Source: Escherichia coli (GTDB taxonomy: Bacteria; Pseudomonadota; Gammaproteobacteria; Enterobacterales; Enterobacteriaceae). From it: 64,000 nucleotides of DNA. Shown piece after piece: positions 18,001 through 21,000 of the stretch. The stretch lies in NCBI RefSeq assembly GCF_017348835.2, contig NZ_CP071375.1. One strand, given 5' to 3'. Position numbers: made by a program. Position 1 is the first letter of the stretch, and each line of letters starts with the position of its first letter.

Positions 18001-21000
18001 CAGCCCGTCATTATTTGTGCGGACGGATACGGTTCGTGCCGTGCGGCGTGGTGACACGCTGACCATTAATGGTGAGATATTCTGGGTGGATCGTGTTTCT
18101 CCGGATGACGGGGGCAGCTGTTATCTCTGGCTCAACCGTGGTCAACCACCCGCCGTTAACCGGCGACGATAAACGCAGGGTGAATTATGGCGATAAAAGG
18201 GCTTGATCAGACGATTGAAAATCTGAGCCGGGTTCGTAAAAACGCCATTCCGGCGGCTTCAGCAATGGCCATTAACCGCGTGGCCACAACGGCGATTAAT
18301 CAGTCTTCGTCACAGGTTGCCCGGGAAACCAGGGTGAACCGGAAACTGGTAAAGGAACGGTCCAGACTGAAACGGGCCACGGTCAGAAATCCGAATGCCA
18401 GAATTATCGTTAACCGCGGTGATCTCCCGGTGATTAAGCTGGGGATCAGGATGCCGGGGCGTCGTCCGGACAGCATACTCAAAGCCGGTCAGCATCGTTA
18501 TCAGCGGGCATTTATTCAGCGATTAAAAAATGGTCGCTGGCATGTCATGCAGCGTGTGGCCGGGAAAAACCGTTACCCCATTGATGTGGTGAAAATCCCG
18601 ATGGCGGCCCCACTGAAACAGGCGTTTGATGAAAACGTTGACCGTATCCGGCGTGAACGCCTGCCCGGAGAACTGGCATATGCGCTGAAACAACAACTGA
18701 GGATTGCGATAAAACGATGAAACATACTGATATCCGTGCGGCAGTGCTGGATGCACTGGAGCTGCATGAACACGGGGCGACGCTGTTTGATGGTCGCCCC
18801 GTTGTTTTTGACGAAGAGGATTTTCCGGCCGTCGCGGTTTATCTGACGGATGCAGAGTATACCGGTGAAGAGCTGGATGCAGATACCTGGCGGGCCACAC
18901 TGCATATTGAGGTGTTTTTACCAGCACAGGTACCGGATTCGGAGCTGGATTCGTGGATGGAAAGCCGGATTTATCCGGCGATGACTGCGATCCCGGCACT
19001 GGCAGACCTGATTACGACGATGGTTACGCAGGGCTATGAGTATCGTCGTGATGACGATATGGCGTTATGGAGTTCTGCGGATCTGACTTATTCCATTACA
19101 TACGAGATGTGAGGACGATATGTCAACACCAAATCCCCTTGAGCCGGTAAAAGGTGCCGGTACCACCCTGTGGGTTTATAACGGTCAGGGTGACGCCTAT
19201 GCAAACCCGTTGTCAGACGATGACTGGCTGCGACTGGCTAAGGTGAAGGATCTGACGCCGGGCGAGATGACGGCAGAACCCTACGATGATAACTACCTGG
19301 ATGATGAAGACGCGGACTGGACCGCGACCGGGCAGGGGCAGAAGTCTGCAGGAGATACCAGTTTTACGCTGGCCTGGAAACCGGGAGAAGAAGGTCAGAA
19401 AGGGCTTATAGGCTGGTTTGAAAGCGGGGATGTGCGGGCCTATAAAATCCGTTTTCCGAACGGCACGGTGGATGTGTTTCGTGGCTGGGTCAGCAGTATC
19501 GGTAAGGCCGTGACGGCGAAAGAAGTGATCACCCGCACGGTGAAAGTGACCAACGTGGGCAAACCTTCTGTAGCGGAAGAACGCAGCAAAATTACGCCGG
19601 TCACTGCGATTAAGGTGACGCCGACATCCGGTACGGTGGCAAAAGGGAAAACAACCACCCTGACGGTTTCTTTTGAGCCGGAAAGTGCAACCGACAAGAC
19701 GTTCAGAGTGGTTTCCGCCGATCCGTCGAAAGCCACCATTAGTGTGAAAGATATGACAATTACGGTAAACGGCGTGGCGACAGGTAAGGTGCAGATCCCT
19801 GTGGTGAGCGGAAATGGTCAGTTCGCCGCAGTGGCTGAAGTCACCGTTACTGAAGCGGGCGCTGCAGGGTAAACGGAGGTAATACATGTTTCTGAAAACA
19901 GAACAATTTGAATATAACGGTGTGTCTGTCACGCTTTCCGAATTGTCTGCGCTGCAGCGTATTGAGCATCTTGCCCTCCTGAAACGGCGGGCAGAAGAGG
20001 CGGAAGCCAGCGGCAACCTGCAGGTAAGCGTGGAAGATCTCGTCAGAACCGGCGCGTTTCTGGTGGCGATGTCCCTGTGGCATAACCATCCGCAGAAAAC
20101 GGCATCACCGTCAATGAATGAGGCTGTGATGCAGATCGAACAGGAAGTGCTCACCACCTGGCCTGCGGATGCCATTGCCCGGGCGGAAGATGTGGTGTTG
20201 CGTCTGTCCGGGATGAGCGGGGCTGTTCATGCGGATACTGACAGCACCGAAGTGGCGAAATATAACGCGCTGACTGATGATGATTTTTCTGCGGGAAAGT
20301 CTTCGACGGCGAGCTGAATTTTGCCCTCAGACTGGCGCGTGAGATGGGGAGGCCTGACTGGCGCGCCATGCTTGCCGGGATGACATCCACCGAATATGCC
20401 GACTGGCGACATTTTTACCGTACGCATTATTTTCACGATACCCAACTGGATATGCATTTTTCCGGGCTGACGTACGCCGTACTCAGCCTGTTTTTTTGCG
20501 ATCCGGATATGCATCCCTCTGATTTCAGTCTGCTTGCCCCCCGGCGTGAGAAAGCGCAGACGGAGATGCCGGATGAGGAAAAAATGCTGATGCAGAAAGC
20601 GGCAGGACTTGCCGGAGGCGTACGGTTTGGTGGGGACGGAGGGCGTGAGATTTTATCGTCTGCGGATGTGGCGGATGTCAGCGAGGATGATGTCGCATTA
20701 ATGATGGCTTCAGCGGGGATTCCGGGAGGTGTGAGATATGTCCCAGCCGGTTGGTGATCTTGTTATTGACCTGAGTCTGGATGCGGTCCGTTTCGATGAG
20801 CAGATGAGCCGGGTAAGGCGTCATTTTTCCGGACTGGAGACTGACGCCAGAAAAACCGTCGGTGTCGTTGAGCAGAACCTGAGTCGTCAGGCGCTGGCTG
20901 CACAAAAAGCCGGGATTTCCGTCGGGCAGTATAAAGCGGCCATGCGAACCCTGCCCGCACAGTTTACGGATATCGCCACGCAGCTTGCCGGTGGTCAGAA

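Follow-up and report, generated by a model that had tools for sequence, protein, structure and literature searches.

The tail module of a lambdoid prophage in Escherichia coli contains a gene, T, whose reading frame overlaps the end of the preceding gene, G, raising the question of how T is translated. In the 64,000 nucleotides of contig NZ_CP071375.1 that were analysed (the window), the RefSeq/PGAP annotation gives G and T a gene each and records no G-T fusion. The original prediction was that T is reached from G through a conserved programmed −1 frameshift. The site is very probably orthologous to the programmed −1 ribosomal frameshift of lambda G/GT, a type of recoding that is already known, ordinary biology. 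The features concerned are as follows.

19120 to 19872, + strand: gene V, major tail tube protein, upstream neighbour (Pfam PF16461 Phage_TTP_12)
19875 to 19879, + strand: Shine-Dalgarno sequence GGAGG of gene G, 6 nt before its ATG, read from the sequence
19886 to 20317, + strand: gene G, zero-frame product, 143-aa tail assembly chaperone gpG, by family matches
20284 to 20317, + strand: the only stretch (34 nt) free of stops in both the G frame and the −1 (T) frame, by stop-to-stop frame walk
20293 to 20299, + strand: slippery heptamer G_GGA_AAG, phase checked, matching the lambda site and with its AAAG core invariant in relatives
20299 to 20757, + strand: T segment, post-slip reading in the −1 frame (152 codons and a stop), by family matches
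20344 to 20346, + strand: internal ATG, annotated by RefSeq/PGAP as the first codon of a separate T gene but unlikely to be a true start, given its weak anti-Shine-Dalgarno energy
20738 to 23317, + strand: gene H, tape measure protein, downstream neighbour (Pfam PF06791, PF09718)

The identity of these genes is well supported by family matches. G matches Pfam PF06894 Phage_TAC_2 (E = 2.9e-50) and the NCBIfam equivalog TIGR01674 phage_lambda_G (E = 1.5e-48; 164 bits against a cutoff of 74), and the T segment matches the equivalog TIGR01715 phage_lam_T (E = 4e-61; 204 bits, cutoff 77) and Pfam PF06223 (E = 2.2e-13). The pair sits between the major tail tube gene V, in which PF16461 (E = 6.3e-69) is accompanied by a Big_2 domain, and the tape measure gene H, which matches PF06791 TMP_2 (E = 1.3e-67) and PF09718 Tape_meas_lam_C. 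The order of the module, E-FI-FII-Z-U-V-G-T-H-M-L, is that of lambda. Translation signals are strong at the starts of G and H: the anti-Shine-Dalgarno duplex energy is −10.8 kcal/mol for G, in the top 4 % for strength of all ATG contexts on the + strand of the window, and −11.6 kcal/mol for H. No solved structures of relatives were found by a sequence search of the PDB.

The geometry of the overlap is as predicted. The window reads GGGAAAG at 20293–20299, and a frame walk places 20293 at the third base of a G-frame codon, giving the phase X_XXY_YYZ. The AAG codon (20297–20299) is followed by TCT TCG ACG GCG AGC and then by the G stop, TGA 20315–20317, which is the sixth codon after AAG. The −1 frame is open from 20284, directly after an upstream TGA, to TGA 20755–20757, which lies beyond the H start and overlaps ATG 20738 by 20 nt. 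There is thus an in-phase slippery heptamer inside the G/T overlap, the arrangement that characterizes a lambda-type G/GT frameshift. Joining G residues 1–138 to the T segment gives a predicted fusion of 290 aa.

By analogy with lambda, ribosomes would start at the G ATG (19886), with its strong Shine-Dalgarno sequence, and most would terminate at TGA 20315–20317 to yield the 143-aa chaperone gpG. When the P site holds GGA and the A site AAG (20294–20299), a few per cent, perhaps the ~3–4 % expected from lambda, would slip back one base, the P-site tRNA-Gly and A-site tRNA-Lys re-pairing with GGG and AAA, so that Gly-Lys is encoded either way. Reading in the −1 frame would then continue to TGA 20755–20757, producing the 290-aa gpGT fusion. 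The chaperone roles would likewise follow those in lambda: the G part would bind the tape measure protein H and the T part would recruit the tube protein V, with a fixed low G:GT ratio needed for tail assembly and both proteins absent from the virion.

The lambda G/G-T frameshift was reportedly described by Levin, Hendrix & Casjens in 1993 and by Xu, Hendrix & Duda in 2013 and 2014. Its slippery site, listed in Table 1 of PMC3296357, is identical to the heptamer in the window; in lambda GGGAAAG gives ~4 % shifting, a 30:1 ratio is essential for tail assembly, and shifting depends on tRNA-Lys mnm5s2U34 (PMC5009743, PMC3296357, PMC7618472). Both G and GT are required for lambda tail assembly and are absent from virions (PMC5009743). 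The predicted likeness to lambda is borne out in detail, with the same G_GGA_AAG, the same phase, AAG six codons before the G stop, an identical junction peptide GK|VFDGEL, the order V-G-T-H, and a T end that overlaps the H start. Identity is 67 % for the G protein and ~76 % for the DNA of the G-T region. The differences are in dimensions and in the end of G: G has 143 aa in the window and 140 in lambda, the T part 152 codons rather than 144, the stretch open in both frames is 34 nt rather than 64 nt, the T/H overlap is 20 nt rather than 8 nt, and the C-terminal ~20 residues of G before the site are unrelated. In addition, the lambda GT product has been shown experimentally (Levin et al., 1993; Xu et al., 2013, both as cited in PMC5009743), whereas the fusion in the window is a prediction from sequence.

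Comparison with related prophages and phages supports the claim that the site is conserved. The set contained 93 related loci, representing 38 distinct sequences, and the position of the site is kept throughout, although the G proteins of the relatives are only 37–75 % identical to that of the window and the C-terminal region of G just upstream of the site is highly variable. The A_AAG core is invariant at the same position in 38/38 distinct sequences, the distance from AAG to the G stop is six codons in all relatives except PhiR40_1, where it is two, and the 34-nt overlap open in both frames is common to all close relatives. The heptamer itself differs by clade, being GGGAAAG, GGAAAAG, or AAAAAAG; at the level of sequence, therefore, slip-proneness is kept while the heptamer changes. 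At the homologous position, the records for phi80, N15, LLS, and phage 21 carry an annotated −1 frameshift site or a joined CDS. Two loci, L005 and L006, had appeared to be natural counter-examples, in which G is fused to T or T is truncated. They were rejected as such, as L005 carries three and L006 one indel of a single base in homopolymer runs, most simply explained as sequencing errors or decay.

The sequence downstream of the heptamer is constrained as T rather than as G. In the clade that carries GGGAAAG, the columns that vary from the heptamer to the G stop are all third codon positions of T, which reads GKVFDGEL throughout while the tail of G varies (SSTAS, CSTVS, FSTAS). In these alignments, purifying selection on the T frame starts directly after the heptamer. 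The clean signal is that within this clade; when all clades are compared pairwise over the 15-nt overlap, the synonymous/non-synonymous counts are 115/180 in the T frame vs 72/223, a modest preference for the T frame, because the N-terminus of T itself differs between clades.

Other known systems are comparable to the locus. In N15 (gp14/15), phi80 (G/G-T), HK225, mEp043, and LLS, homologous G and T are present, AAG is six codons before the stop, the N-terminus of T is conserved (...ELxFxxxLARE...), and GenBank explicitly annotates a −1 frameshift site, GGAAAAG. In contrast to the window, that site is G_GAA_AAG, an imperfect X_XXY_YYZ with GAA (Glu) in place of GGA (Gly) in the P site, the T part is shorter, at 113–115 codons, and Phe is found where the window has Met-20344. 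The locus also resembles the wider class of tail chaperones in long-tailed dsDNA phages (Xu, Hendrix & Duda, 2004, Mol Cell), with two overlapping ORFs between the major tail and tape measure genes, no start of its own for the second ORF, and a slippery sequence in the overlap. That class differs in including sequence-unrelated chaperones and some other types of site, such as the +1 shifting inferred for an archaeal virus (PMC5009743). Belonging to the narrow lambda sequence family, the locus therefore does not broaden the class.

The E. coli dnaX tau/gamma site (A_AAA_AAG) is similar in that the only tRNA-Lys of E. coli (mnm5s2UUU) slips from AAG to AAA in the A site, and the relatives ASU11, 1720a-02, and Stx1 of the window locus use the same A_AAA_AAG. 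Shifting in dnaX is ~50 %, owing to an upstream Shine-Dalgarno-like stimulator and a downstream hairpin, neither of which is detectable in the window. Stimulated −1 frameshifting was taken to involve a downstream structure 5–9 nt away or an upstream Shine-Dalgarno sequence. Folding of 20300–20400 (z = −1.8) and RNAalifold on 10 diverse relatives found no stable conserved hairpin or pseudoknot at the right spacing. The hairpin that was returned by RNAalifold, at ~20332–20368, starts 34 nt after the heptamer and has a covariation term of −0.78 kcal/mol; nearly all its pairs are held invariant by the conserved T residues that they encode, and one distal pair alternates GC/AU, tracking clade. Given its distance, the z-score, and the invariant pairs, it is not accepted as a stimulator. 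An anti-Shine-Dalgarno energy scan likewise found no such element at a stimulatory distance upstream, the only matches (−3.4 and −4.3 kcal/mol) overlapping the heptamer's own GGGA, and a stimulator like that of dnaX was therefore rejected. The absence of detectable stimulators fits the efficiency of a few per cent known for lambda G-T.

The simplest alternative is the annotated one, that T is an ordinary gene of 137 aa starting at ATG 20344, with no need for a frameshift. This codon is where PGAP begins a 137-aa 'phage tail assembly protein T', that product is listed on ~1,000 contigs, and the Pfam T domain (PF06223) starts after Met-20344. Nevertheless, this ATG, the only candidate, has no Shine-Dalgarno sequence, its anti-Shine-Dalgarno energy of −1.6 kcal/mol being weaker than the median of −2.65 for all ATGs in the window, and the Met is replaced by Phe (TTC) in six relatives (N15, HK225, mEp043, phi80, LLS, and PhiR40_1). 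Conservation at the protein level extends over the 15 residues preceding it, where most of the variation falls at third positions, and the TIGR01715 alignment begins at nt 20311, inside the G ORF and 11 codons upstream of the ATG. Initiation at ATG 20344 was therefore rejected, and as far as the sequence goes T is probably without a plausible independent start. In lambda, T is made only as the GT fusion (Levin, 1993, as cited in PMC5009743 and PMC3296357). The annotated reading is accordingly considered very unlikely. More improbable still is that the change of frame arises in the mRNA, through slippage of RNA polymerase on the A/G run to give a minority of transcripts one base short. The runs at the site are of only three G and three A, and in E. 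coli RNA polymerase slips productively only on homopolymers of roughly 8–9 nucleotides or more; the AAAAAAG clade does have a run of six A. Some genes of bacteria and phages do yield products in two frames through transcriptional slippage (reviewed in PMC5009743), but at the identical heptamer of lambda, frameshifting responds to tRNA-Lys anticodon modification (PMC3296357), which points to the ribosome and not to RNA polymerase.

It could also be that the heptamer is present by chance or as a relic of ancestry, unused, with no fusion made at a meaningful level. There are 13 copies of GGGAAAG in the window on both strands, vs 7.9 ± 2.9 in shuffles, which is not significantly more; the heptamer alone is not rare, and its rarity was rejected as support. 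A second in-phase GGGAAAG, at 21784 inside H, is clearly non-functional, and there is the lack of a detectable stimulatory structure near the site. A slippery motif proves nothing alone; it is phase, overlap geometry, and conservation that make the case. From window-wide frequencies, the probability of an in-phase X_XXY_YYZ among the nine in-phase positions of the overlap is ~0.036, and that of an in-phase XXXAAAG within the 34 nt is ~0.0025. Five in-phase slippery heptamers occur in the eight structural ORFs, and only that at 20293 opens a long −1 ORF (152 codons, vs 2–17 after the other four). The question of chance is settled by the conservation across the 93 loci, and ancestry alone is hard to accept when the position is kept while the sequence shifts among three slip-prone forms in relatives with G identities of only 37–50 %. 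With T-frame purifying selection from the heptamer onward, an unused site is the least probable of these readings, and extremely so. Translational frameshifting of the lambda type is retained as the explanation of the site.

A separate matter is whether the frameshift is still of use in this host. In gene M, which encodes a tail-tip protein, there is a TAG at 23548–23550 where the prophage of O103:H2 12009 has TGG, and the tail pathway served by the frameshift may thus be broken. It is possible, if less than probable, that the site is mechanically intact but irrelevant here, within a defective and decaying prophage. Such a reading is compatible with lambda-type frameshifting, as it concerns present usefulness rather than mechanism. 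Against advanced decay, no internal stops are found in the 29 other prophage genes compared, and the V, G, T, and H proteins are 100 % identical to those of the O103:H2 12009 reference prophage. Decay, if it has begun, would therefore be very recent, or the amber codon may be suppressed or complemented by related prophages, of which such genomes carry a median of 2 and up to 8 copies. Compared with O103:H2 12009, the G/T region is 100 % identical and the prophage overall ~98–99 %, while the flanking chromosome differs; the right half of the window has its best match in O145:H28, at 99.0 %.

Two further ideas arise from the comparisons. Stx1_EH2197 and ASU11 share ~100 % identity with the window in V, ~50 % in G, and ~90 % in T, and the breakpoint on the right falls at the slip site. 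It is conceivable, though rather doubtful, that the clade-specific heptamers set G:GT ratios matched to tape-measure or tail length and that the conserved island at the slip site is a preferred recombination junction for G cassettes. If so, the junction would let G cassettes swap independently of T, and both ideas would refine a known system rather than introduce new mechanisms.

The exact 290-aa fusion sequence has no match in a collection of 15 billion proteins. Its absence from databases is due to annotation practice and is not biological evidence. The scientific weight of the finding is small, since lambda G-T is textbook recoding and the site in the window is a close orthologue with the same heptamer. 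Its practical value is for annotation, in that the stand-alone 137-aa 'T', here and on the ~1,000 other contigs, is called from a non-conserved ATG. For proteomics, structure prediction, and phage-sensing work on the tails of STEC prophages, use of the fused GT sequence is advised.

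The sequence at 20285–20305 was read as TTTTCTGCGGGAAAGTCTTCG, and the slippery heptamer GGGAAAG is present at 20293–20299, as in the original prediction. A frame walk gives the G ORF as 19886–20317 (143 aa) and places 20293 at a third codon position, therefore the zero-frame reading is GCG GGA AAG and the heptamer is in phase as G_GGA_AAG. Its predicted distance of six codons before the G stop is also correct, being AAG and five sense codons, then TGA at 20315–20317. Likewise, the claim that the −1 frame is open through to the start of H was borne out: after an upstream TGA (20281–20283) it is open from 20284 to TGA 20755–20757, past the ATG of the next gene (20738) and ending 20 nt within it. 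The G and −1 frames are jointly open over only 34 nt, and the heptamer is inside these 34 nt.

The two frames encode the following lambda-type products:

19886–20317, + strand: G, matching Pfam Phage_TAC_2 (2.9e-50) and the NCBIfam equivalog phage_lambda_G (1.5e-48)
From 20299, + strand: T segment in −1 frame translation, matching Pfam Phage_tail_T (2.2e-13) and the NCBIfam equivalog phage_lam_T (4e-61)

A lambda-type tail tube protein gene, V, is upstream of G and the tape measure gene, H, is downstream of T, within a wider gene order (E-FI-FII-Z-U-V-G-T-H-M-L-K-I-J) that matches lambda. At the DNA level, G-T matches a prophage in STEC strains including E. coli O103:H2 str. 12009 at 100 % identity and lambda at ~76 %, with 67 % identity between the G proteins of the window and lambda. 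The window is distinct from the O103 genome: the whole prophage is ~98–99 % identical to that of O103:H2 12009, and the flanking chromosome (hya/app/gfc/etk region) has its best match in O145:H28 (99.0 %).

A comparison set of 80 loci from IMG/VR and 13 from annotated phages or prophages was scanned for the position of the G stop, the extent of the overlap, and slippery heptamers in phase. AAAG is invariant at the same position in all 93 anchorable loci (38 distinct 247-nt sequences), and the distance from AAG to the G stop is six codons in all relatives except PhiR40_1, where it is two. The heptamer is GGGAAAG in lambda, phage 21, ev099, and the clade of the window, GGAAAAG in N15, HK225, mEp043, phi80, LLS, and PhiR40_1, and AAAAAAG in ASU11, 1720a-02, and Stx1_EH2197. 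A −1 frameshift site is annotated at the homologous position in the GenBank records of phi80, N15, and LLS, and a joined CDS is present in those of phi80, phage 21, and LLS. That the site stays in place while one slip-prone heptamer replaces another is the pattern expected from selection for the slip, and inherited sequence alone would not produce it.

At the equivalent of 20293–20299 in related loci L003, L004, and L085–L091, GGAAAAG is not a perfect X_XXY_YYZ and AAAAAAG is the dnaX heptamer. Two IMG/VR relatives, L005 and L006, were considered as exceptions and rejected, as they differ solely in one-base insertions or deletions at homopolymer runs of the G and T genes (window equivalents 20284, 20491, and 20724 in L005; 20535 in L006). 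One of those in L005 puts G out of frame immediately ahead of the heptamer. Sequencing errors or decay of the prophages most likely account for these indels.

Conservation is strong downstream of the heptamer, in contrast to the C-terminal region of G just upstream, which varies greatly. Around 19960–20310, identity to Stx1_EH2197 (L087) and ASU11 (L088) is ~100 % across V and as far as ~70 nt into G, ~50 % over the body of G, and ~90 % again right after the slip site. This mosaic junction shows that a G cassette has been exchanged, its right-hand breakpoint falling within the conserved island that holds the frameshift site.

In RefSeq/PGAP, T is a separate CDS of 137 aa beginning at ATG 20344 (20344–20757; O103 locus tag ECO103_RS11770, NC_013353.1), with no ribosomal-slippage join, which would have T initiate independently. 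This is contradicted on four counts. Anti-Shine-Dalgarno pairing at this ATG is −1.6 kcal/mol, weaker than the median of all 1,160 + strand ATGs (−2.65) and than the starts of G (−10.8) and H (−11.6). Six relatives encode Phe at this position, which rules out Met-20344 as a conserved start. The protein sequence of the preceding 15 −1-frame codons, VFDGELNFALRLARE, is conserved family-wide, with variation concentrated at third positions, and the alignment to the curated phage_lam_T model starts at 20311, within G and 11 codons ahead of the ATG. From the heptamer to the G stop in the GGGAAAG clade, all variable columns are T-frame third positions; T is invariably GKVFDGEL and the G tail is SSTAS, CSTVS, or FSTAS, therefore the heptamer marks the point at which the T frame takes over from the G frame as the one under purifying selection.

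This switch in the selected frame, together with positional conservation despite heptamer turnover, contradicts the heptamer being a chance occurrence or relic, although the GGGAAAG motif by itself is no more frequent than chance (13 in the window; 7.9 ± 2.9 expected from dinucleotide-preserving shuffles). Position and phase are more informative: with window-wide frequencies and nine possible in-phase positions in the overlap, P is ~0.036 for any in-phase X_XXY_YYZ and ~0.0025 for XXXAAAG. Among eight structural ORFs taken as an internal control there are five in-phase slippery heptamers, and only that of G leads into a long −1 frame (152 codons), the other four reaching a −1 stop within 2–17 codons. 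One of these four is a second in-phase G_GGA_AAG inside H (21784–21790), where slipping by −1 would give a stop after 13 codons and a truncated H; it probably occurs by chance, and it shows that the motif is not diagnostic by itself. Transcriptional slippage could also change the frame, but it is unlikely, as the runs of identical bases are only three long and it does not fit the tRNA-modification dependence of the identical site in lambda (PMC3296357). The integrity of the prophage is a separate matter. The tail-tip gene M (23314–23643) has an amber TAG at 23548–23550 (W79*; TGG in the O103:H2 12009 prophage), shortening gpM from 109 to 78 aa, and is the sole gene with an internal stop among 30, with none in the other 29 compared. 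The prophage may therefore be tail-defective unless complemented or suppressed, which is compatible with frameshifting at G-T.

The supported model is that of lambda, and the slip, its rate, and the chaperone roles would apply to the window allele by analogy. With GGA in the P site and AAG in the A site, the bound tRNA-Gly and tRNA-Lys would each move one base upstream to pair with GGG and AAA, leaving the Gly-Lys dipeptide unchanged, and the ribosome would read on into T to make a 290-aa GT fusion. In lambda, ~4 % of ribosomes shift at GGGAAAG, the G:GT ratio of ~30:1 is critical for tail assembly, the G part binds the tape measure protein and the T part the tube protein, both G and GT are absent from virions, and loss of tRNA-Lys U34 thiolation increases shifting (PMC5009743; PMC3296357; PMC7618472). 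The tRNA genes and cargo of the prophage region are:

3490–3739, + strand: cluster of three prophage tRNA genes, Met-type (cat), Arg(tcg), and Arg(tct), upstream of the lysis region
25862–26386, − strand: sodC (Cu/Zn superoxide dismutase) cargo gene, opposite in strand, between tail genes I and J
34123–34210, − strand: tRNA-Ser(tga), near the end of O103 prophage similarity and the start of conserved E. coli chromosome (hya/app/gfc/etk)

None of the three prophage-encoded tRNAs is for Lys or Gly, therefore the slip would rely on host tRNAs. The O103 gene matching the Met-type (cat) tRNA is annotated as tRNA-Ile, and this is probably a lysidine-modified AUA reader. Integration of the prophage was probably in the region of tRNA-Ser(tga) and about 30067–32400. 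The Lom-like gene (30063–30659) has just 47 % identity to the O103 copy, and the SodC protein 100 %.

The sole hairpin predicted downstream begins 34 nt after the heptamer (z = −1.8). This GC-rich inverted repeat (20332–20368; UGGCGCG...CGCGCCA) is kept in all clades because the pairs encode conserved T residues LAREMGRPDWRAM, and a frameshifting role for it is not supported. An anti-SD pairing scan found no upstream SD-like stimulator besides the GGGA of the heptamer itself. The lack of a stimulatory element fits a low-efficiency, heptamer-driven site, which does not qualify as a stimulated frameshift signal of the dnaX or viral type.

At the sequence level, the locus has all of the defining features of the lambda-type G/GT chaperone frameshift (Levin et al. 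1993; Xu et al. 2004). It is an orthologue of this already known, textbook system. In a 15-billion-protein collection, the exact 290-aa GT fusion is absent and the G and stand-alone 'T' products are each found in ~1,000 contigs; tail-chaperone frameshifts are often overlooked by annotation (PMC10885494). The sole practical import is for annotation, in which the stand-alone T is artificial and the fused product is unlisted.
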